NCBI GenBank assembly: GCA_029717555.1 | Contig: JAMDHS010000040.1 | Span: 172,400 to 192,399 of the forward strand | Source: Peribolospora baueri | Taxonomy: Eukaryota | Direction of reading: 5' to 3' | Length of the DNA stretch: 20,000 nucleotides | Shown: positions 6,411 through 20,000 of the stretch, piece after piece | How positions within the stretch are numbered: position 1 is the first letter of the stretch | Layout: each line of letters opens with the position of its first letter | Notes under the pieces: generated by a model | Database searches by the model: none | Seen by the model: the letters and a program-made list of their open reading frames with translations, nothing else | Told to the model about the DNA's origin: nothing | Made by a program: the position numbers and the translations under genes

Positions 6411-8210
6411 ATGAGCCTCGACGCCGACGCCACCTTGCGCGGGCGTCTCCCGCACGCCTCTCTCGACGACTCGGACTCGGCCTCGCCCGTCGTCGTCGAG
6501 GCCAAGGGCCACCCGCTGGGCGCCGCCAAGGTCTCCGCCACCGCCACCGCCACCGCGCGCCCCTCCAAGCCCGCCCGCTTCGCCCAGGCCGAGCCCGTGG
6601 ACGCGGACATTGAGGACGACTACGTGACCCGCACGCTCGCCTCTCAGAAGGCGCTCCCGCCCGTGACGTGGAGCAACTTCCTGTCCGAGGTTAACTGGCT
6701 CTCCACCATCATCCTCACCGTCACCCCGCTCCTCTCCATCTACGGCCTCTTCACCACCAAGCTCCAGGCCAAGACGTTCTGGTTCGCCATCTTTTGGTAC
6801 TACGTCACCGGTCTCGGCATCACCGCCGGCTACCACCGTCTTTGGGCCCACCGTTCCTACACCGCCTCCAAGCCTCTCCAGTACGCCCTCGCTCTCGCCG
6901 GCGCTGGTGCCGTTCAGGGCTCCATCAGATGGTGGTCCCGCGGCCACCGCGCCCATCACCGCTACACCGACACCGACCTCGACCCCTACAGCGCCCACAG
7001 GGGTCTCGTCTGGTCCCACATCGGCTGGATGGTCATCAAGCCCCGCCGCAAGCCCGGCGTGGCCGACGTGTCGGACCTGACGAACAACGCCGTCGTCCGG
7101 TGGCAGCACGAGAACTACCTCGCCCTCCTCCTCCTCATGGGTCTCGCCGTGCCCACCCTCATCCCCGGCCTTTTCTGGGGTGACTGGACCGGCGGCTTCT
7201 TCTTCGCCGGCGCCGCCCGCCTCTGCTTCGTCCACCACTCTACTTTTTGCGTCAACTCGCTCGCCCACTGGCTCGGCGAGGCCAGCTTCGACAACAAGAT
7301 CTCCCCGCGCGACCACGTCATCACCGCGCTCGTGACCATTGGCGAGGGCTACCACAACTTCCACCACCAGTTCCCAATGGACTACCGCAACGCCATCAAG
7401 TGGTTCCAGTACGACCCCACCAAGTGGTTCATCGCCACCATGAAATACCTCGGCCTTGCCTCCCACCTCAAGGTCTTCCCCGACAACGAGGTGAAGAAGG
7501 GACAGCTGACGATGCAGCTCAAGAGGCTCCACGAGATGAAGCAGACCATCGAGTGGCCCAAGAGCTCGAACCACCTGCCCGTCGTCTCCTGGGACGACTT
7601 CCAGGAGGAGTCCAAGACCCGCCCCCTCATCGTCGTCCATGGCTTTGTGCACGACGTGAGCTCCTTCCTCGACGAGCACCCCGGCGGCCGCCACCTGCTC
7701 ATGAACAAGATCGGCAAAGACGCCACGACAGCCTTCCTCGGCGGCGTGTACGACCACTCCAACGCGGCCCACAACCTGCTCGCCATGATGCGCGTCGGCG
7801 TCCTCGACGGCGGCTACGAGCTCGAGGCCAACAAGCCCCAGTACCGCGCCGCCGCCGCCGCTGCGCACGCCGGCCGCTCCGGGTCGGCCTCGGACGCGAC
7901 GAACCCGGGCGTGACGACGTCTTCGGACGAGAGCGACGACTTTACCTCGTCCGGCCCTCCGACTCCTCTCTCTTCTCGGTCCGAGGAGAACCTCGTCCTC
8001 CCCGCCGCCGTGTCCGCCAAGGCGCCCACCTCGTCGTCCTCCGACTCTGCCTCGGCCTCGGAAGATGTGGTCATCCTCACCGACGGACGACGGATCGCGC
8101 CGTCGGCGGCCAAGTACCTACCCCCGAGCCAGATCCTTGACATTGTTTCCCGCGGCGAGTTGACGGAGAACGCGAGGGCAAGGAGGGGCAAGCTTGGCAA
8201 GTTGCTCTGA
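6411..8210 (+). CDS. OLE1: Acyl-CoA delta-9 fatty acid desaturase with C-terminal cytochrome b5 domain, 599 aa, intronless
   Basis: Three His boxes (HRLWAH, HRAHH, HNFHH), GITAGYH, TM segments, and b5 heme motifs HPGG and GGVYDHS. Strong C-ending codon bias starts at GCC ATG 6411. The upstream extension in the ORF track is pyrimidine-rich UTR/promoter. Confidence 0.97.
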   Translation: MSLDADATLRGRLPHASLDDSDSASPVVVEAKGHPLGAAKVSATATATARPSKPARFAQAEPVDADIEDDYVTRTLASQKALPPVTWSNFLSEVNWLSTIILTVTPLLSIYGLFTTKLQAKTFWFAIFWYYVTGLGITAGYHRLWAHRSYTASKPLQYALALAGAGAVQGSIRWWSRGHRAHHRYTDTDLDPYSAHRGLVWSHIGWMVIKPRRKPGVADVSDLTNNAVVRWQHENYLALLLLMGLAVPTLIPGLFWGDWTGGFFFAGAARLCFVHHSTFCVNSLAHWLGEASFDNKISPRDHVITALVTIGEGYHNFHHQFPMDYRNAIKWFQYDPTKWFIATMKYLGLASHLKVFPDNEVKKGQLTMQLKRLHEMKQTIEWPKSSNHLPVVSWDDFQEESKTRPLIVVHGFVHDVSSFLDEHPGGRHLLMNKIGKDATTAFLGGVYDHSNAAHNLLAMMRVGVLDGGYELEANKPQYRAAAAAAHAGRSGSASDATNPGVTTSSDESDDFTSSGPPTPLSSRSEENLVLPAAVSAKAPTSSSSDSASASEDVVILTDGRRIAPSAAKYLPPSQILDIVSRGELTENARARRGKLGKLL

Positions 8211-9823: not shown

Positions 9824-9899
9824 GGACGGACGGACGGATAGACAGGCAGACGGATAGACAGACGAACGAACGAACGAACGAACGAACGAACAACGAACA
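9824..9899. repeat. Compound tetranucleotide microsatellite (GGAC/GACA/GAAC)
   Basis: ggacggacggacggatagacaggcagacggatagacagacgaacgaacgaac... Confidence 0.85.
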
Positions 9900-10204
9900 A
9901 ACGGCCAAACGGACGAACGGCGGGCGCGGACGGACGAGAGGACCGGCTCATCTCCTTCGTCCACCTTCTCCCCCACGCCTTCGCTTCCGCCCTCCTTCCT
10001 CGGTTTCACCTTTGCCAGCAACCCGTTTCGCTTTCGGTCAACCCGCCCGACCACTTTACCCGCCGCCCCGCCGTCTATACGCATCCCACCACTCCGCCCC
10101 GAGCCCTTGCTTGCCATCGACGCCGAACAAAACCGGGTGCTCCCTGCCCCGGTCGTTCCCCCTCTTCCTCGACGACAACGCCACCACCACATCTGCAAGT
10201 CGCC

Positions 10205-12253
10205 ATGGCCCCCTCCACGGCCGCCTCCTCGCCGCCCCTCCAGCCCGCGCCAGGGCAGAAGCAAGCGTCCAAGCCCAAGTCCACGATGGCTGACGCTCCA
10301 CTTCCTCAAAGAAAACCGCTTTCTTCTCGACCCAACTCGGTCATCGGCCTCCTTCGCCTCCCCCTCCCCAAGCGCATTCGTTCCTTCTCCTCTTCCTCCT
10401 CCGTTCGCTCCGCCAGCCTTCGCGACTCGCCCTTCTCCCCCGCTCTCTCCGGGCCCCTCAGCGCACCGATCCTCGACAAGGAGGAGGACCCCATGCTTCG
10501 TCCCACCCCGCCGCCGCCGCCGCCCATCGCCCCATCACCAGACCAACGGCGGGCAACCGACGGCGCCAGAACGGCCGTCTCCTTTGTCGTGACCTCCAAG
10601 CGGTCTTCCTACCTCGGACCCGCCGCCCGCGCTCCTCCGGCTTGCGCTGATGGTAGCAAGGCCTCAGCGACCCCGCCCGTCGACATGGCCGCCGCCAAGT
10701 CCACGTTCGCCGACACGCTCTCCACTTCGCCCGACTCCTGCTCCCCCGTCCTCAGCGATCCCACCTGTGAGAGCCAGACGACCATCACCAAAACGCTCGT
10801 CGGTCAGCGCCACCGCGACCGCGGCCGAGACTCGGCTCTCTCCTCCTCCGCCGCCTCCTCCTCTTCCGCCTTTTCCCTCCCCCTCACCGACCGCTCCACT
10901 TCGCTCACCCGTTCCCGTTCCAACTCGCGTTCTTTGTCCGGCGCCGGAAGCACGATGAAAGGAACGCAGGAGAGCGACTGGACCGGCTCTTGGTCCAGCT
11001 TGGAGGAGGCCGCTGCGACGGCTACGGTGGCCATCGGCGCGGCGACGTCGCCGCTCAAGGGGCACGATGACGACGGCCCAGGTCACCTCGCCGGTGTCGT
11101 CCCGGCGAACGCCGCGGGGAAGGCGGCTTGGCGGCATGCGCCTTCTCCCTCGTCTGCGTCCACCTTATCCGCCGCCACCGTCGCAACGACAACAACAACA
11201 ACAACAACGACGACGATGACGATGCCGCCGCCGCTCCTCTCCGCCGCTTTCCTTACTCCCACGCCCTCCGCCGAACCGTCGCCTTCCCCTTTCTTTACCC
11301 CTCTACCCTCCGCCACGCCCTTGCTCGCTCCCTTTCCCCTATCCCAGCCTATCGATCCACATAACGATGGCGAGGCCGGTGGCGGTCACGCTCACCCGCC
11401 CGTCCTCGTCGATGGACGACAAGGGCGGTGTGCGCAAGAGCGAGAGGCGGCCGGCGACGATGACGTCGGCACGTCTCTTCCAGCTTCTCTTACCACCACC
11501 CACTCCGCATCCCACCCTTCCTTTCCCTCCTCCTCGTCTACCTCCCATTCCTCTTCCGACCGCGCCCCCACCCTCCTCCGCACCGTCTCCCTCGACGCTG
11601 TCCTCCTTCCTCTCCCTCCAACAAGCAAGAACGAGATATTGGATCTTGCCGACCCACCGCCGCCGCCGCCGAATACGTCCTCTCCGTCGTCGTCGGCCGT
11701 GGCCGTGCCTCGCTTGGAGGAGGCTGACGGGAAGGGAAAGATGGAGATTGATGGTCGGATGAATGGGTCGGCGGCGAGGCCGGTTCTTGGCGTTGGAGTT
11801 GAAGAGACGATGGCGGCGGCGGCGGCGAAGCGGGTTCTGGGCGTCGGAGCTGAAGCGACGTCGACGACGACGACGACGACGGAGAAGGAAGCGGCCGCCG
11901 ACTCGGGCCCGCGAGACGACGCGCTCGGGCTCCTCGGTTCTCCTCTCCAACACCCTTTCGTCCTCGCCCCTTCCCGTCCCCCCGTCTCTCCTCCTCACCA
12001 CCTCTCCGCCGCTCGAACCTTGTCCTCCCTGACCCTCGCGTCCACCTCGCCAGACCACCCCGTCGCATCTCCGCCGGAACCTGCCGCCCACGACGCCGCC
12101 CTCTGCGACGCATCGTGCCTCTGTCTCGGTTGTTTGCGCACCAGCGTAGCTCCGCTCGAGGCTTTGGAGAGGTGGAGCGTAAAGGTCGTCGTCGACGCTG
12201 AGAGGGAGCGCCAGGTGGAGGTGGTCGCGGTCGCGGTGGCGGCGGACATCTGA
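10205..12253 (+). CDS. Hypothetical S/P/T/A-rich, probably disordered protein (682 aa) with a C-terminal Cys cluster
   Basis: 2049-nt open frame with good start context (GCCATGG), in-frame trinucleotide runs (poly-T, poly-P, poly-A) and a pyrimidine-rich 3' flank. No recognisable domain. Confidence 0.6.
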   Translation: MAPSTAASSPPLQPAPGQKQASKPKSTMADAPLPQRKPLSSRPNSVIGLLRLPLPKRIRSFSSSSSVRSASLRDSPFSPALSGPLSAPILDKEEDPMLRPTPPPPPPIAPSPDQRRATDGARTAVSFVVTSKRSSYLGPAARAPPACADGSKASATPPVDMAAAKSTFADTLSTSPDSCSPVLSDPTCESQTTITKTLVGQRHRDRGRDSALSSSAASSSSAFSLPLTDRSTSLTRSRSNSRSLSGAGSTMKGTQESDWTGSWSSLEEAAATATVAIGAATSPLKGHDDDGPGHLAGVVPANAAGKAAWRHAPSPSSASTLSAATVATTTTTTTTTTMTMPPPLLSAAFLTPTPSAEPSPSPFFTPLPSATPLLAPFPLSQPIDPHNDGEAGGGHAHPPVLVDGRQGRCAQEREAAGDDDVGTSLPASLTTTHSASHPSFPSSSSTSHSSSDRAPTLLRTVSLDAVLLPLPPTSKNEILDLADPPPPPPNTSSPSSSAVAVPRLEEADGKGKMEIDGRMNGSAARPVLGVGVEETMAAAAAKRVLGVGAEATSTTTTTTEKEAAADSGPRDDALGLLGSPLQHPFVLAPSRPPVSPPHHLSAARTLSSLTLASTSPDHPVASPPEPAAHDAALCDASCLCLGCLRTSVAPLEALERWSVKVVVDAERERQVEVVAVAVAADI

Positions 12254-12754
12254 ATGAATCCGACATGGACATTTTTTCTGCAGTCTCTCCTCCTACTTCT
12301 TCTTCTTGCTCCGCTCGCTTTCTCCCTTCCTTTCTCTCTCCGGTATCGACGTAACGGTGTATCACCACGGCTGGTTCGGTTCGGTTCGTCTCTCTTCGTC
12401 ACCGTCGTCTCTTTCTTTCTTCCTTTCTTCTTGTCTTCTCTTGTCCACCGCTTCACGCCATACTCGTCTTCGTCTTCGTCTTCCCGCCGCGTCTCCCCCC
12501 TTGTGTCCCCCCTTGGCCCTTGTGTTTGTCTGTCTGTCCACGTTGAAACTCTGCCCTAAGATGCGTTCGAGCCGGACAACGGCTCGCGTCCTTTTCTCCT
12601 TTCTTTCTTCTCTTTCCGGCCCGTCCGCCTGCTCTCGTCTACGTTGTTGCCCCTCCCCTCTCCCCTCTCTCTCTCGCTCTTTACCGTATCCACTCGTTCT
12701 CGCTCCCTTGCTCGCCGTATCAGATACGGATACCGCACACGAGAATCGGAATTC

Positions 12755-13169
12755 GTCTGATGAGCGTGCATTCCAGCACCTTATTTAACCTCGCGGTCGC
12801 GTTCGCATTCATACCGCATCGTCAGCCAGTTCTGCTTAACCGAAAATGGCCCCACTAGAAACTCTCATCACGTCCAATCAAGTGACAAGAGCTTCTTGCA
12901 CACTTATAAACTTTGAAAATAGGTTAAGATTCGTTTCAACCCGAGGCTCGCTTTACCTCATAAATCTGATGCGAGTTTTCTGCTATCCTGGGGGAAAACT
13001 TTGCGCAGGAAACCAGCTACTAGATGATTCGATTAGTTCTTTTCGCCCCTATATACCCAAATTTTGACGATCGATTTGTACGTCAGATATCGCTACGAGG
13101 TCTCCACCAGAGTTTTCCTCTGGCCTTCGTTCGCCCTATTCAGGCATAGTTGGTGCACCATCTTTCGGG
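12755..13169 (-). pseudogene. Degenerate internal fragment of LSU (25S/28S) rRNA gene, domain II region
   Basis: The + strand follows the reverse complement of fungal LSU colinearly: GTCTGATGAGCGTG.ATTCC.GCACC, CCAGTTCTGCTTA, TCGCTTTACCTCATAAA, a degenerate LR5 primer site (TCCTGAGGGAAACTTCG; here tcctgggggaaaactttg at 12986), ACCAGCTACTAGATG.TTCGATTAG, CCCTATTCAGGCATAGTT, CACCATCTTTCGGG. It has many indels and no flanking rDNA. Confidence 0.92.
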
Positions 13170-13482
13170 GGATTTTTTTTCCGAGCCGTCCTATTGTACA
13201 CCCCACCCGGTCGGGTCACGTCGGGTCGCGTGCGTGTCGGCGCTTACTTTATCGCTAAACAAACGTCAGGCCAGGCTGGCGGAGCGAAGAAGAAGCGCCG
13301 ACACCCACCCACGCCGCCCGACGGACGAATAGGGCATGGCGGACACGACACACCAGCACTCGATGGAAACCCAGTCTTGTACTAGAGCGTGTGTAGGCGG
13401 GCAGGCAAGCAAGAAAGGAAGGCAGTCGTCTCGTCTCGTACGTACGTGCCGACCACCCGCCCCGTCCCTCCGCCGCCGCCAT

Positions 13483-16112
13483 TCAACCCGTACCCGCCGA
13501 CTCGGCACCGGCCTCCTCCACCCTCTGTTTCTCCTTCTTCGCCGCCGCCGCTGTTATCCGCTCGATCTCCGCTCTCTCCTCTTCCGCGCTCATTGCCGCA
13601 GGCCGAGGTCGGCTCTGCTGCTGCGCCGGTTTGGCATGCGCAGGCCGAGGCCGAGGCGGACGGTTATGCTGCTGCTGTTGCTGTTGTAGAGACGGGCGCT
13701 GCGGGACCGAGTGCCAAGGTTGGTAGGGCCGATACTGGTGTTCGTGTTCCCGTCCGGCCAAAGGTCGCGACTTGCCTGACCTTGACGACGAGCTCCGGTC
13801 GGTCGCTGGCGGCGGCCGAACATAGGACCGGGCGCCGAGGTCTGTACCGGTGAGGGAAGCACCGACGTCAGAGACGTCTGGAGGCGCCGGGTTGATCTTG
13901 TTAGGGATGTCGAGCAGCGCGCACAACGCTTCCGTCTGTGGGTTCGTGTACCATGGCGCTGGTGACCGTCGTGTGGGAAAGAAGAGAACGTGGCAACAAA
14001 GCACGTTGAGCAGCGGATCAGGTGGGACGGGAACAGATGGAAGCCAGGTAGGAGTCACTCACGCATCCTCGTTTCCCTTCCGCCCGGGTCGACCGGAGAT
14101 GGCGCCGTCCTGTGAAACGTCTGCGTCCTCAGAACGTCGAGCGGGTGAGAGTGCGCGGTCGTCAAGCCTTCCCTCTCATCTCCACCGCTTTCGCCGCCAC
14201 TTTGCTCCTTCGACAAACGCTCTTTGATCCATCCCATCTCCTTCTCCACCATTTTGCGCAACTCTGCAGAGTCCGGTTGAGGGAAAGGAACGGTTGGGCG
14301 GTGCGAGAGGGGCAGGTAGGGGTGAAGTGCGCGCGTGATGGCGAGCCATCGAGGCGAAAAGCGAAAAATGGGAGGAGAGCTAGATTCGGGTGCGGGTATG
14401 TCGACGATCTGTGGGCATGGAACAAGGAGTGAAACGCGCCTTTCAGCGGCCGCCGGAGTACGTAGGTGAACGAGGGAGGACCAAAAAGCACGAGTGCCGT
14501 TGCCCACCTCTAGGAAGCCACCTTTGGGGGTGCACTTGCTTAATGCCAGAAAACTTGTCGTCCTAGCAGAAGCCAAAGGGGCTTCTGCCGCCGGCTCGGC
14601 AGATGGACCCAAATCCACTTCTGTGGCAGCCGTCTCCTCCGTCATACGGCTTGTGTCATCCGCCGCCGCGGTCTCGTCATCCTCGTCCACATCAATGTCG
14701 ATCGCATCGGGATTCGTAGACGGGGCCATGTCGACCATCACGTCGTCGTCATCAATGACAATCTCTTCCGGGTTTGCAGACTGCGGCGCCTCCTCAGCTT
14801 GCGCAAACGGAATTCCTGACACTGATCCCCAATCGCCTGCCATCTTCGAAGAGCTATCGTGCCGATATAAGGCGGGGAATCTGACGTGCAGGTGCGCAGC
14901 GAACCAGTGCGAAGGCTTCAAGGTCTGGAGGAGGTCCAGAAGCGGAGGGGAGCCAAGGGTGCCTGTGTTGACCTGTTACGTACAGGGAATGAGCGGAAAG
15001 AAACATGAGATACTGCAGAGACAACTGAATGGCTCAATGGGAGCACACCTCCTCCGTAAAGAACCGCTTCTTGCTCAGAAGAGCTCGCAGGTCGCCGTGC
15101 TGCTCGATCGTGTTGGGCCAGTCGTGAGAGAGGAAGATGTCCGGGTTCTCGTCGAGCTAAGCATCGAAAAGGAAATATGGGAGATTGAACGGGTGTACCC
15201 TGTGAAAAGGAAAAGAAGCGTCTCCGGCTTACCATCATCAGCTTGAGAATATCATACCTTCGGACATGGTAGATGCTCCGCATGTCGCCAGCAGAATACG
15301 GCATCCTCTCGAAATGACCTGTCGTGGGCGGCGGGAAAACCAGGTCAGACAACCCAATCCCCCAACCTATCCGTGAGCTCTCTTTGGTTAAAATGGCGAA
15401 GGCGGATGAGTCATTCACCGAGATTGTAATCGTGGGATTTGTAGATGCCTGACGCCCCGGCAATGGTCAGGCCATTCACTTCGACCGCACCCGCAAAACC
15501 GAGAAAATAGATGTTCGGTGCTAGCCAACCTCCGTGATACCTGAACAGAAAGGGATAGATGCGAAGCCTGATAAATGTTTGGTAAATCAAGCGCGAAAAG
15601 CTCGCATCCAGTGCAGGGACAGAAACACGTCGGCTCGACTACTCACAGCTCCCACATGTAATTACTCGCCTCATGATTGCCTCCGATGACGATCGTGAGC
15701 ATGGGAGCCACCCTCTCTCCGGAGTAGTACTTGTGAAAGCCGCCCAATCGACGATATTTTTGAGGCACGGCCAAGCAGTTCAGATCGGCTGCATTTCGGA
15801 TCGCCTGGAAGGGAGGACGAAAAATCCAAAGGTCAAAGATCAAGAGATCCCCCGCTTCGCTTTGGATGTGGTCATCTTGAGGACGTGCAATGATGCGCAC
15901 CTGAAAGTCTCCGCATATGAGCAGCAAGTCCACCTTGTACCCTCCCTTCTCCTCTGCCTGTCGGACGGAGTCGTAGATGGTGTCGAGCTCGCCGTGGCAG
16001 CACCCTTCGACTGCGATCTGTTCGGACGGCGTTCGACGAAGGTAGCACGAACGCACAATTTGAGCACAGAAGGTCTCAAACGTACGTATCTCTGGACGGC
16101 TCACACCTTCAT
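13483..16112 (-). CDS. DBR1: RNA lariat debranching enzyme, ~627 aa; exons 16112-16107, 16017-15901, 15804-15647, 15540-15419, 15318-15233, 15156-15049, 14972-14508, 14408-14063, 13958-13483
   Basis: Spliced product contains [76 protein letters not shown] and the C-terminal [13 protein letters not shown]. All introns are GT..AG and the frame sums to 1884 nt. Confidence 0.95.
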
Positions 16113-16415
16113 CGTAACTCTGTTTTGGGACGAGGCGAGAAGAGAAGGCGTTCATTGGCAAGGGCTCCGGTTTGGAGAAAGAGAAGACACATCGCCTCGT
16201 CTGCACGTGATCGACTTGATATCGACTACGATCGGCGGCCGGCGTCGTCGTCTTCGTCTTCTCGTGCGACATGGAGACGCTCGCAAAACACACAGTCCCC
16301 CTCTTTTGTCCTCCCCCTTCACAGCCACGCCATGTTTACTACTGTCAACCCGTCTCCGACCTTATATACGGCACGCGCGCTCTCCAAGCGCCCAGCAGCT
16401 GCTTCGCCCCCCTCG
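16113..16415. promoter_or_regulatory. Probable compact bidirectional promoter shared by DBR1 and MED4
   Basis: Divergent start codons lie ~300 bp apart (~220 bp if MED4 uses ATG 16332). Positional inference only. Confidence 0.55.
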
Positions 16416-17532
16416 ATGCGAGACGAGCTGCTGACGACTCTCACCGCCTACCAGTCGCTGACGCAGTCCCTCTTCGCTTCCCTCGAATCCGCCGCTTCCA
16501 CATCCCGAGGAGTCCCTCCACGTCCACCTCCCTCCATCCTTGCCGAGATATCCTCACTGGACGAGAAGCTGGCGGCCCTCCTGGAGAAGGCGAGACGTCA
16601 CGCGAGCAACCAGCGTAGGATCACCGCACTCTTGCGAGAGATCGACGAGGCCGATGAGAAGGCTTTGGAGGCGATGACGGTGTTGGAGAAGGCGGGGCGC
16701 GAGTTGGATGGCATCGTAGCCTACGGAAGAGAGGAGATTGATATGATGAAAAAGGCTGAGAAAGGTGAGGCGCGCTCGTCTTCTTTTTTGTCCACACAAA
16801 GGACGAGATGAGTCTTCTGGCAGAGCATCCTCCGCTTTTCGCCGTCGTCTTTGTCTGCACACACAGTCCTTGACCGGCTTGTTCATCGCACCTTATCGTA
16901 TCTTTTACCTCATTCCCCCCTTCGCTCATCTCGTCCACGACCAACCAAATCGAAGCGGCCATCACGCCCGCCACACTGCTCTCTTATGCCGCTCGCCTCG
17001 GCAAGTTCACCTCCGCACCACCAGGCTACATCCTCCCGTCCCGCCTGGCTGCACAGACCAGACGCGCACAAGTCGAGGCCGAGGCGCAGACCGAAGCCGG
17101 CGCCGCGTCTCAGCCTCAACGCACCTTGGGGGAGCCGGGGCAGGACCAGCCCCACGCCCCCATGGCCACTATACCGCCGTGGCCGACAGAGGATATGATG
17201 AGGAGGGGAGCATTGAGCGCCGGTGTGGTCAATATGATGGAGATGGTCGTGGGTCAGTGGTCTCCTGTCCCTTCTTTGTCTCTCTTCTGGACCTTACTCG
17301 TCTATTCGAACCGGCCTGACCCTCGTTTCGTGCATTCTTCATTCTTCGCCTACCACATCTACCTCGCCCAGAACCGCCTGCGGAACAAGCACAACAACCC
17401 GCGCAACCGCCGCCGGCGCAAGCGTTCCCCATCACAACGGCCCACGCCGCCCCGGCTTTCGAAGAGGCGTGGCCGCCTGCTGGAGACGACGAGGATATGT
17501 TCGGGCTAGATTTGAACCCGGACAACGACTGA
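16416..17532 (+). CDS. MED4: Mediator of RNA Pol II transcription subunit 4, ~268 aa; exons 16416-16764, 16956-17252, 17372-17532 (in-frame upstream ATG at 16332 possible)
   Basis: Coiled-coil-like N-terminal half, then Med4 motifs LLSYAARLGKFTSAPP and PPWPTEDMMRRGAL, ending in the fungal-type DDEDMFGLDLNPDND*. Spliced frame is 807 nt. Confidence 0.88.
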
Positions 17533-17809: not shown

Positions 17810-18787
17810 TCACACCCATCGCTTGCCGTAAGACCAAATGCCGGCAGCACTGCCGACCAGTAGCGATGACACGATCATGGGTCGAACGCCGGCTGGAATG
17901 CGAGTAGTAAGGAAAGAGGTGAGATACTTGGCTGGTCACAAGCGCATGACGATGTAGAACCATGTGCGAACACGAAACGAGACTCACAAGTGCATCTGAA
18001 CAAAGCGCCGCTCACGGTGCCAGCGGTGATGCTGTTCAACGCATCGTGCTTGCCTCGCGCGGCGTCCATGGACGAGTTGATGACGTTGTAGAACAGTGCT
18101 GACAAGAAGAAACCACGCGGAGAGGAAGCACACTTCTATCAGCGGGCAAGCGACTCAATGGTCGGGAAGATGAGAAAGAGGCGGTGGCAAACCGGTAACT
18201 CACCGAGTAAGCCCGCAGAGTTGCCGATAAACGTTCCTCGGCGCGTGACGCTGTTGAGGATGCTGTTGATGCGCAGACGGGCATTGGATACGCCGAGCTG
18301 TCTTCGCCATCCTTCGCGAAGGCCCATCAAGCCACCGATAGAGAGGCCTGGTGTGGAAAATGAGGAAAGTGAGTGCGATGGAAGGTGATGCGAGATAGCA
18401 CATGAAATAATCCAGGACAGAACGTGACGTACCCGACAAGTACGTCGTTCCGGTGCCATAGCACAGATCATCTCCCCATCCCCTGCTCGGCAGCGCCGTC
18501 CGGGCACCCTCGAGCTCATTCGGCTGGTCCTCGTCCAGAAGCAAGTAATCCACGTTCCCGAGCCCTGCTAGAGGGTGCAGACGGGTAGGGTCCAATGCGG
18601 CAGCACCAAGGACGTCCGAGGCAGTGACAGCATCGGTAGGGGTAGCGTAGGAGCCGGGAGAAGAGCCCGGAGTGCTGAACTGTGCGTTACGGAGGAACGA
18701 AGCCGAGTCGACGTCTTGCTGCGAGGACACCGGGTGGCTTTGGCTACCTGGTTGTGAGGAAGAAGAGCTGGGGTCGGAGAACGACAT
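17810..18787 (-). CDS. TIM23: Mitochondrial inner membrane translocase subunit Tim23, 230 aa; exons 18787-18433, 18347-18204, 18098-17988, 17892-17810
   Basis: Motifs LHPLAGL, LPSRGWGDDLCYGTGTTYLSGL, RLRINSILNSVTRRGTFIGNSAG, RGKHDALNSITAG and GALFRCTSGVRP. GT..AG introns give a 693-nt frame. Confidence 0.96.
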
Positions 18788-19223: not shown

Positions 19224-19229
19224 TATAAA
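19224..19229 (+). promoter_or_regulatory. TATA box of the secreted repeat protein gene
   Basis: TATAAA(G) ~90 nt upstream of ATG 19315, followed by a CT-rich leader. Confidence 0.6.
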
Positions 19230-19314: not shown

Positions 19315-20000
19315 ATGAAGTCCTCCCCTCTTCTCTCCTTCGTGGCCCTGGCCTTGACCATCGCCGCTTCCCAGCCCTCAGTGGCTGCTCCTGCAGTAGC
19401 GCCGTTGACCAGGGTTAACCCGTCTTCCGCTGGGGTTGCTAGCCACGTCCATGTGGACAACGCGTCTTCGACCGACCCCTCTGGGAACAACACCCCTTCC
19501 GCCGACACCTCTTCGGCCGGCACCCCTGCGACCGATACCTCTTCGACCGATACCTCTTCGTCCGATAGCCCTTTGGCCAACACGCTTGGGACCGACACTG
19601 TGACCGCGGATTGGTACGGCAAGAAGAAAATAAACAAGGCCAAGAACAAAAACTTCAACCATGTTGATATCGATCAAAAACAGAAGACTGACGTTGACGT
19701 CGACGTTGACAACAAGAAGCAGTACAACAAGCGCGACGGCGAGAAAAAGATCAACAAAGCAACTAACGTCAACCACAACAAGGTCGACCTCGACAACGAA
19801 CAGAAGACTGACGTCGACGTCGACGTTGACAACAAGAATAAGCCCACCAAGCGCGACGGCGAGAAAAAGATCAAGATCAACAAAGCAACTAACGTCAACC
19901 ACAACAAGGTCGACCTCGACAACGAACAGAAGACTGACGTCGACGTCGACGTTGACAACAAGAATAAGCCCACCAAGCGCGACGGCGAGAAAAAGATCAA
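19315..20000 (+). CDS. Secreted Kex2-processed repeat protein (KEP-like precursor), 3'-truncated by the window edge; absent from the ORF track
   Basis: Open frame from ATG 19315 to the edge. It has a signal-peptide-like start MKSSPLLSFVALALTIAASQPSVAAP, a S/T/D-rich spacer, then 40-42-aa repeats each ending in KR, e.g. DGEKKINKATNVNHNKVDLDNEQKTDVDVDVDNKNKPTKR. Confidence 0.88.
   Translation, partial: MKSSPLLSFVALALTIAASQPSVAAPAVAPLTRVNPSSAGVASHVHVDNASSTDPSGNNTPSADTSSAGTPATDTSSTDTSSSDSPLANTLGTDTVTADWYGKKKINKAKNKNFNHVDIDQKQKTDVDVDVDNKKQYNKRDGEKKINKATNVNHNKVDLDNEQKTDVDVDVDNKNKPTKRDGEKKIKINKATNVNHNKVDLDNEQKTDVDVDVDNKNKPTKRDGEKKI
19471..19575 (+). repeat. Degenerate 15-bp coding tandem repeat (xDTSS-like pentapeptide)
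   Basis: accgatacctcttcg occurs twice exactly, plus diverged copies in the same 15-bp register. Confidence 0.75.
19615..20000 (+). repeat. 120/126-bp coding tandem repeat; units 19615-19734 (diverged), 19735-19854, 19855-19980, 19981->edge
   Basis: Units 2 and 3 are identical except for a 6-nt AAGATC duplication. Confidence 0.95.

Follow-up and report, generated by a model that had tools for sequence, protein, structure and literature searches.

A tandem-repeat protein of an Ustilaginomycotina-like fungus with alternating charge, predicted Kex2 processing and possible self-assembly of its peptides

INTRODUCTION

Close to the 3′ end of a 20,000-nucleotide stretch of contig JAMDHS010000040.1 (the window, by which we mean the whole stretch analysed) lies the start of a gene for a tandem-repeat protein, and within its second repeat unit a stretch of 30 residues places charged and uncharged residues at alternating positions. 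The locus raises a simple question: is this alternation a property of the protein, and, if it is, do the repeats form strands that assemble outside the cell? An earlier note on this DNA had proposed functional amyloid or ionic self-assembly by secreted surface or matrix fibril peptides. The analysis described here confirms the alternation, finds secretion of the peptides, and their release in many copies, very probable, and presents self-assembly as a plausible extension, by analogy with peptides of another fungus.

Kex2-processed repeat proteins (KEPs) are defined by a signal peptide, the absence of a membrane span, three or more similar repeats and a KR, RR or KK pair between the repeats, and 1193 of them have been listed in 226 species (PMC6339444). 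In the published scheme, the signal peptide is removed, late-Golgi Kex2 cleaves behind the dibasic pair, Kex1 trims the products, and the peptides are secreted; KEPs are described there as an architectural class rather than a homologous family, the functions of most members being unknown (PMC9769878). The literature on KEPs used here is that of Le Marquer et al. (2019) and Vogt et al. (2022).

A precedent for structural peptides of this kind is Rep1 of Ustilago maydis. In the published accounts (PMC3133707, PMC4617103), Rep1 has 12 repeats with Kex2 sites and gives rise to ten peptides of 34–53 residues plus one larger product; the peptides form amyloid fibrils in the wall and on aerial hyphae, and the fibrils mediate aerial hypha formation and attachment to hydrophobic surfaces. 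Orthologues of Rep1 have been tabulated for several Ustilaginomycetes (PMC7409079) and reported from tBLASTn searches in Tilletia (PMC9172201). Two further U. maydis proteins are described in PMC4617103: Hum3, which has amphipathic repeats of 31–36 residues, putative Kex2 sites and a hydrophobin domain at its end, and Rsp1, which has hydrophilic repeats of 18 or 21 residues with putative Kex2 sites, and whose function is given as unknown.

RESULTS

Charge alternation in the repeat

Translation of positions 19753–19842 on the + strand gives exactly the 30 residues quoted in the earlier note. Its odd positions (N,A,N,N,N,V,L,N,Q,T,V,V,V,N,N) comprise 7 Asn, 1 Gln, 1 Thr, 1 Ala, 4 Val and 1 Leu, and its even positions (K,T,V,H,K,D,D,E,K,D,D,D,D,K,K) comprise 5 Lys, 6 Asp, 1 Glu, 1 Thr, 1 Val and 1 His; neither Pro nor Gly occurs in the stretch. 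Twelve of the 30 residues are charged, none of them at an odd position and all 12 at even positions. The probability of finding all 12 on a single parity is 1.05 × 10−5 by combinatorics, and the same result was reached by 9 of 1,000,000 shuffles. The stretch was selected post hoc, and the six frames of 20 kb hold about 40,000 thirty-codon segments, so that given this number of candidates an event of probability 10−5 is not overwhelming when taken alone.

Two further counts bear on the pattern. The eight residues TDVDVDVD are the product of a (GACGTC)n hexanucleotide run; when they are removed, all 8 of the remaining charged residues are still at even positions among the 22 left (P = 1.0 × 10−3). 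The corresponding stretch of the first repeat unit (19633–19722) has 12 of its 13 charged residues at even positions (P = 1.2 × 10−4). A third copy of the stretch (19879–19968) is identical to the one under study and adds no independent evidence, because the third unit is simply the second plus 6 nucleotides. The first unit has diverged, and it is real independent support for the alternation. Charge alternation at 19753–19842 is thus confirmed. It is confined to part of the unit: the register is shifted in the N-terminal Lys-Lys-Ile(-Lys-Ile).

The observations made in the earlier note therefore stand as far as the pattern itself is concerned. The arrangement of uncharged odd and charged even positions, free of Pro and Gly, was reproduced residue for residue, and the two-faced character read from it is real, as judged by charge parity in unit 2 and in the diverged unit 1. 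The note also spoke of a 38-mer, which is the correct length for unit 2 once its C-terminal Lys-Arg is removed; unit 3 would yield a 40-mer.

Reading frame and layout of the precursor

The coding sequence begins with the ATG at 19315 and is still open where the window ends (Table 1). Its N-terminus has Met-Lys, a hydrophobic core of 13 residues and then small residues, and is followed by a pro-region of about 80 residues, repeat units of 40, 40 and 42 residues, and 6 residues of a fourth. Residues 5–18 and 23–30 are the only two stretches of at least five residues in the visible precursor that exceed the aggregation/hydrophobicity threshold. Within the pro-region, a tandem array with a 15-nucleotide period (19465–19565, + strand; 6.7 copies, 73% matches) encodes pentapeptide repeats of Ser, Thr and Asp, which is likely to be an O-glycosylation or spacer region.

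The G+C content of third codon positions (GC3) in the ATG frame is 0.75 overall and 0.77 in the repeats, and that of second positions (GC2) is 0.37 overall and 0.15 in the repeats. Codons ending in C or G are favoured in the repeats for Lys, Asn and Asp, as they are in a neighbouring desaturase gene, which has a GC3 of 0.91; such values are what a GC3-rich genome would lead one to expect. The repeats are free of stop codons and (GACGTC)n equals its own reverse complement; as a result, a second frame on the + strand and the minus strand are likewise open across them between 19661 and 20000, and an automatic caller of open reading frames could pick the wrong one. These other frames were rejected, since the contrast between GC3 and GC2 singles out the ATG frame and settles it as the true coding frame.

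Divergence of the repeat units

Tandem Repeats Finder describes the unit DNA as 2.6 copies of a 126-nucleotide period with 94% matches. Units 1 and 2 differ at 29 of 120 nucleotides over 40 codons, 9 codons having synonymous changes only and 13 having amino acid changes, and 9 of 30 residues differ in the alternating stretch. The ratio of nonsynonymous to synonymous substitution (dN/dS) between them is 0.29 by NG86 or 0.61 by LWL85, a noisy figure from 40 codons. Changes on the odd face are limited to I/L, Q/N and K/N, while those on the even face are K/T, K/V, F/H, H/K, K/E and Q/K. Four Asn positions in the N-terminal half are shared by the two units.

Unit 3 (19855–19980) matches unit 2 (19735–19854) base for base apart from a 6-nucleotide insertion coding for Lys-Ile, whose placement is free within a short duplication of the AAGATC type. 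This identity suggests that the two units arose by a very recent duplication or by gene conversion, and the repeat locus is likely to be polymorphic in length.

These data bear on an explanation in which the pattern has no selected meaning and comes from a recent expansion of simple sequence, (GACGTC)n together with AAC/AAG-rich repeats, perhaps within a gene that does little or in DNA that is no true gene. Such an origin would suit the near identity of units 2 and 3, the period-6 GACGTC runs that underlie the Asp-Val stretch, the other frames and minus strand that stay open through the repeats, and the lack of a homologue in the libraries searched (see below). However, the parity persists in the eight charged residues outside the hexanucleotide run (P = 1.0 × 10−3) and again in unit 1, 29 of whose 120 nucleotides differ from unit 2; the frame marked out by the GC3/GC2 contrast is the one that starts with a signal-peptide-like sequence at an ATG; dN/dS is below 1 by both methods; and the missing homologues are partly explained by the absence of the host genome from the protein collection. 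We consider an origin of this kind very unlikely.

Predicted processing of the precursor

The visible protein has the layout of a KEP. Three complete units of 40, 40 and 42 codons are followed by the start of a fourth, and Lys-Arg is present at all three unit boundaries, so that splitting at KR gives pieces of 140, 40, 42 and 6 residues. Repeats make up residues 101–228 of the 228 that can be seen, compared with the 15% of the protein that a KEP should have at least, in a protein cut by the end of the window. Arg occurs in the repeat region solely within the three boundary Lys-Arg pairs, and Lys-Arg is also kept at the end of unit 1, the diverged copy. That unit has no Lys-Arg in front of it and would consequently stay joined to the pro-region. 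It is highly likely, from these features of the sequence, that the precursor is a secreted KEP that releases copies of its repeat peptides. The word "secreted" in the earlier proposal is in this way made very probable by the signal-peptide-like N-terminus, the tandem units and the Lys-Arg pairs at their boundaries.

The same features could belong to an uncleaved, heavily O-glycosylated protein of wall or adhesin type, in which a Ser/Thr-rich stalk would present the charged repeats as an extended array at the surface and the Lys-Arg pairs would be incidental. The region of about 80 residues rich in Ser, Thr and Asp, with its pentapeptide repeats, does resemble the stalks of wall proteins, the C-terminus lies beyond the window and could hold an anchor, and Lys is abundant in the repeats, at 7 or 8 per unit. 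But if the Lys-Arg pairs were incidental, it would be unexpected for the Arg of the repeat region to be found in the three boundary pairs and nowhere else. Lys-Arg is conserved in the diverged unit 1, and the layout agrees with the published definition of a KEP as far as the window reaches (PMC6339444). We therefore regard an uncleaved wall protein as improbable. A KEP of the α-pheromone-like type was also considered and dropped: no X-Ala or X-Pro follows Lys-Arg, and the peptides are too long.

Search for relatives

Sequence searches found no relative of the precursor, using a query that is of low complexity. Pfam, taken to E values of up to 10, gave just DUF6683 (E = 0.48) and NUP210_Ig (E = 5.4), both far below the cut-offs. 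A word-indexed search of longer proteins confirmed none of 5603 candidates at E ≤ 0.01 with the whole query and none of 6926 at E ≤ 10 with residues 100–228, and an exhaustive HMMER scan of 1,835,955,588 representatives, which covered proteins of any length, gave no protein at E ≤ 0.001. The ESM Atlas had no usable match with either the repeat part or the whole protein, and the sequences in the PDB gave a single chance match, to uL23 (E = 0.34). Among bacterial and archaeal genome contigs, a collection without fungi that says little here, 599 pattern matches were found and none was confirmed. The Asp-Val run does not occur in the text supplementary files of PMC6339444, a set that does not include the peptide Table S2.

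Membership of the Rep1 family by homology found no support in the libraries searched, in which the presence of Rep1 itself is unconfirmed, again with the low-complexity query. Nor was there a match to the curli CsgA or HET-s sequence families in Pfam (E up to 10) or among PDB sequences. The absence of relatives is due in part to the proteins of the host being missing from the protein collection searched, as shown by the desaturase described below.

A proposed model for the predicted peptides

The reading that we prefer places the 30-residue stretch at the core of every repeat of a secreted KEP from an Ustilaginomycotina-like fungus. Following the published biology of KEPs, the signal peptide would be removed in the endoplasmic reticulum, the chain would be cut by Kex2 behind each Lys-Arg on reaching the late Golgi, and both basic residues would be trimmed by Kex1. 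A single transcript would thereby provide the pro-region joined to unit 1 as an N-terminal product, together with many exported peptides of 38–40 residues, with more encoded beyond the window. Each peptide would consist of two arms rich in Lys and Asn, of net charge +2 each, flanking an acidic core of net charge −6.

Alone in solution, the peptides are expected to be soluble and largely disordered. Their site of action would be extracellular, at the wall or at a surface, much as for the repellents of U. maydis. There the core may settle as a strand at a hydrophobic or air–water interface, or once its Asp face has been neutralised, which could be achieved by Ca2+, by low pH or by the Lys arms of neighbouring peptides. 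The aliphatic and Asn side chains would then face one way and the Asp side chains would face water, and strands could associate side by side and out of register. Taken as a whole, this statement (a KEP, released peptides and surface-active strands) is held tentatively, at somewhat less than an even chance; the self-assembling, surface-active part, which leans on analogy, is in itself rather doubtful.

A bolder version is that the peptides are a new class of surface material in fungi, a hydrophilic, charge-patterned functional amyloid gated by counter-ions, produced in many copies from one precursor cut by Kex2, and parallel to the repellents and hydrophobins while unrelated to them in sequence. 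The uncharged Asn/Val face would form the dry interface of a cross-β sheet and the Lys-Asp-Lys face would be its switch, so that fibrils or interfacial films would appear only after neutralisation of the Asp ladder by Ca2+, pH or drying. We think this version unlikely.

Possible strand formation, assembly and solubility

The strand in our preferred model has its basis in the core. The alternation of Val, Leu and Thr with Asp (VDLD ... TDVDVDVD) is a genuine signature of an amphipathic β-strand. The β-periodic hydrophobic moment of the 30-residue stretch is 0.42 (z = 2.93), a value reached by 41 of 5000 shuffles, and that of the unit 1 stretch is 0.45, reached by 49 of 5000. In a sliding window of seven residues, the moment is highest over VDLD and TDVDVDVD, and only this Val/Leu-Asp core is clearly amphipathic. 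The uncharged face has 6 of its 15 positions aliphatic and 9 of 15 occupied by Asn, Gln or Thr, with a mean Eisenberg value of −0.02, which makes it neutral and not apolar.

Several results weigh against the model. The moment at 180° is not significant over the 38-mer (z = 1.46, 483 of 5000 shuffles) or the 40-mer (z = 0.41). The peptides are 42% charged, with a mean Kyte–Doolittle value of −1.66, and fall on the disordered side of the Uversky boundary. A simple aggregation-propensity scan, counting stretches of at least five residues above threshold, detected none in the repeats; units 2 and 3 have no aromatic residue, and the longest uncharged run is 7 residues. The best register for pairing has a score of 9, the mean for shuffles being 8.99, and this score is reached by 503 of 1000 shuffles. 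AlphaFold2 gave no secondary structure for the 228 residues (mean predicted local distance difference test score 44.1, with 202 of 228 residues below 50), which is consistent with disorder but a weak result because no alignment was used. The signal peptide and the Kex2 cleavage are readings of the sequence, and a wall anchor or folded domain in the C-terminal part beyond the window would alter the picture. The argument for selection has just two independent unit copies behind it, and 40 codons give a noisy dN/dS. Finally, with no relative in any search, nothing ties the precursor to Rep1 by descent. A prediction for an oligomer of four copies of the 38-mer (score 0.02, mark 0.32) is evidence in neither direction.

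These results determine how much of the proposed assembly can be kept. The earlier note had suggested that the Lys-rich ends pair with the Asp-rich centre; the layout along the 38-mer, +2 / −6 / +2, fits such pairing, but the pairing is no better than that of shuffled sequences. It had also likened the uncharged face to the Asn/Gln ladders of curli and HET-s. That comparison is not supported: parallel stacking in register would superpose 16 like charges and no opposite ones. Functional amyloid or ionic self-assembly is best regarded as a hypothesis by analogy: the two-faced pattern and the precedent of Rep1 in the subphylum speak for it, while the hydrophilic character of the peptides and the negative scan speak against it. 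An ice-binding or antifreeze role was dropped, there being no Thr-x-Thr or Thr-x-Asn array.

The principal competing explanation accepts the KEP and its release of peptides, and takes these to be soluble, disordered and non-structural: a signal or effector directed at other organisms, a role suggested for most KEP peptides and for Rsp1, or a polyanion that binds cations or buffers through its Asp-rich core. The alternation would then be a binding surface, or a means of keeping the chain extended and soluble. The high charge, the position on the Uversky plot, the lack of aggregation-prone stretches in the repeats and the AlphaFold2 result (obtained with no alignment) are all as this explanation would have them. 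It can also point to Coprinopsis, where KEP knock-outs are described as lacking any phenotype in axenic culture, a part in biotic interactions being the authors' preferred explanation (PMC9769878), and to the hydrophilic, Kex2-separated repeats described for Rsp1 (PMC4617103). However, the parity is kept in the diverged unit 1 (12 of 13) and the changes on the uncharged face are conservative, the simplest reading of which is a two-faced strand; a length of 38–40 residues fits the published size of the repellents (34–53) and not that of Rsp1 (18 or 21); and no receptor, target or metal-binding motif was identified. Soluble peptides are a serious possibility, if well short of an even one.

Host and neighbouring genes

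The genes of the window are eukaryotic and fungal: a desaturase with a fused cytochrome b5 domain, a lariat-debranching enzyme, Mediator subunit 4 and a Tim17-family protein (Table 1). The best matches of the desaturase, at 59–63% identity, are from Violaceomyces, Pseudozyma flocculosa, Sporisorium, Tilletia, Ceraceosorus and similar Ustilaginomycotina. These matches identify the host, on sequence grounds, as an Ustilaginomycotina-like basidiomycete, from the subphylum that includes Ustilago maydis and its Rep1. Among the best 120 matches listed, none exceeds 74% identity in local alignments, and the maximum is 63% where at least 90% of the query is covered. No near-identical desaturase appears among them, so the proteins of the host genome are absent from the protein collection searched.

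Table 1. Location in the window of the repeat gene, its parts and the genes beside it
Feature	Positions	Strand	Remarks
Precursor coding sequence, 228 codons visible	19315–19998	+	ATG at 19315; no stop, continues past window end
Signal-peptide-like N-terminus, about residues 1–19	19315–19371	+	Read from sequence; cleavage anywhere between residues 18 and 25
Pro-region rich in Ser/Thr/Asp/Pro	19372–19614	+	Contains 15-nucleotide tandem array
TATAAA-like box, then pyrimidine-rich leader	19224–19229	+	About 90 nucleotides 5′ of ATG; read by eye, putative
Repeat unit 1, diverged, 40 codons, Lys-Arg end	19615–19734	+	91/120 nucleotides identical to unit 2
Alternating 30-residue stretch of unit 1	19633–19722	+	12/13 charged residues even
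Repeat unit 2, 40 codons	19735–19854	+	Predicted released 38-residue peptide 19735–19848, plus Lys-Arg
30-residue stretch under study	19753–19842	+	12/12 charged residues even
Repeat unit 3, 42 codons	19855–19980	+	Predicted 40-residue peptide plus Lys-Arg; unit 2 with 6-nucleotide Lys-Ile insertion
Second, identical copy of 30-residue stretch	19879–19968	+	
Unit 4, first 6 codons	19981–19998	+	Cut at window end
Lys-Arg pairs, candidate Kex2 sites	19729–19734, 19849–19854, 19975–19980	+	End units 1, 2 and 3
Δ9 desaturase with cytochrome b5 domain	6411–8210	+	
Lariat-debranching enzyme (DBR1)	13483–14975	−	At least 2 exons
Mediator subunit 4 (Med4)	15921–16811	+	
Tim17/22/23-family protein	17875–18787	−	Divergent from repeat gene

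Three other features of the window were recorded. In the part of the window with the highest GC content (0.67), a stop-to-stop frame of 803 codons (9842–12253, + strand) found no match in Pfam; it may represent a genuine orphan gene, or a frame left open by chance in GC-rich DNA. A degenerate fragment resembling eukaryotic large-subunit ribosomal RNA (12673–13185, − strand; 130–137 bits, model positions 667–1453) has large internal deletions and a GC content of 0.47, against 0.53–0.67 for the window. It sits between protein-coding genes and not in a ribosomal DNA array, and may be a pseudogene or insertion derived from ribosomal DNA. Lastly, a tRNA-Ala gene (anticodon AGC; 117–210, − strand) probably carries an intron, because its span of 94 nucleotides exceeds that of a plain tRNA.

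DISCUSSION

Significance

To our knowledge, the repellents are the only KEP-derived peptides with a demonstrated structural role, and a single model smut is their only known source. If the preferred model is true, the locus described here would represent a second, unrelated family in a distant lineage of Ustilaginomycotina, which would suggest that the cutting of a repeat protein into numerous short strand-forming peptides is a recurrent fungal route to building a surface layer. With its Lys arms, the Val-Asp core would in addition be a naturally occurring assembling peptide gated by counter-ions, and of interest for biomaterials. Should the peptides instead turn out soluble and inert, the locus would add one orphan KEP of unknown function to the more than 1000 already listed (PMC6339444). 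The neighbouring housekeeping genes would serve for a test of synteny against the rep1 locus of other smuts.

Comparison with known systems

Asn recurs on one face of the stretch, at 7 of 15 odd positions, as it does in the amyloids of curli CsgA and HET-s, but here 16 pairs of like charges would meet in register, and the stretch has no strand-turn-strand arrangement and no turn containing Gly or Pro.

The designed peptides EAK16 and RADA16 have a fully apolar second face and an order of charges built to be self-complementary. The stretch studied here resembles them in that an alternation of period 2 sets all charges on one face. It differs in these defining features, since only 6 of 15 odd positions are aliphatic and the complementarity is that of shuffled sequences, and it does not belong with them. 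A second group of designs consists of alternating hydrophobic and acidic residues, (X-Asp/Glu)n, which become ordered as β-sheets at interfaces or with counter-ions; the Val-Asp core resembles these.

The resemblance to KEPs in general extends to the signal-peptide-like start, the three similar repeats and the KR between repeats. In most basidiomycete KEPs there is no STE13-type X-Ala or X-Pro after the cleavage site, and the same is true here, where the units start with Asp-Gly. Rsp1 and Hum3, as described in PMC4617103, are likewise secreted proteins whose repeats are split by putative Kex2 motifs. Rsp1 differs in having 18 or 21 residues per repeat rather than 38–40, and Hum3 in having a hydrophobin domain at its C-terminus, whereas the present precursor is visible only to residue 228.

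Among basidiomycetes, the best-known example is Rep1 (UMAG_03924). The published descriptions place it in the same subphylum as the present host and give it a signal sequence, tandem repeats and Kex2 sites. The predicted peptides of 38 and 40 residues lie within the reported range of 34–53 or, in another passage, 35–53, and the larger Rep1 cleavage product would have its counterpart in the pro-region plus unit 1. The Rep1 peptides are described as amphipathic; here the 30-residue stretch has a moment of 0.42 (41 of 5000 shuffles), but that of the full 38- and 40-residue peptides is not significant, and the mean Eisenberg value of the less polar face is only −0.02. The peptides also differ from Rep1, taken as it is described, in being 42% charged and in having a second face that is neutral and not hydrophobic. 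Fibrils, a location in the wall and a role in aerial hyphae have been shown for Rep1 alone, and when descent from the Rep1 family was tested, no link was found. As far as can be judged from the sequence, the peptides themselves are new and without detectable relatives. The architecture and the idea behind it are already known, and by analogy with Rep1 the precursor would work like one of the repellent type.

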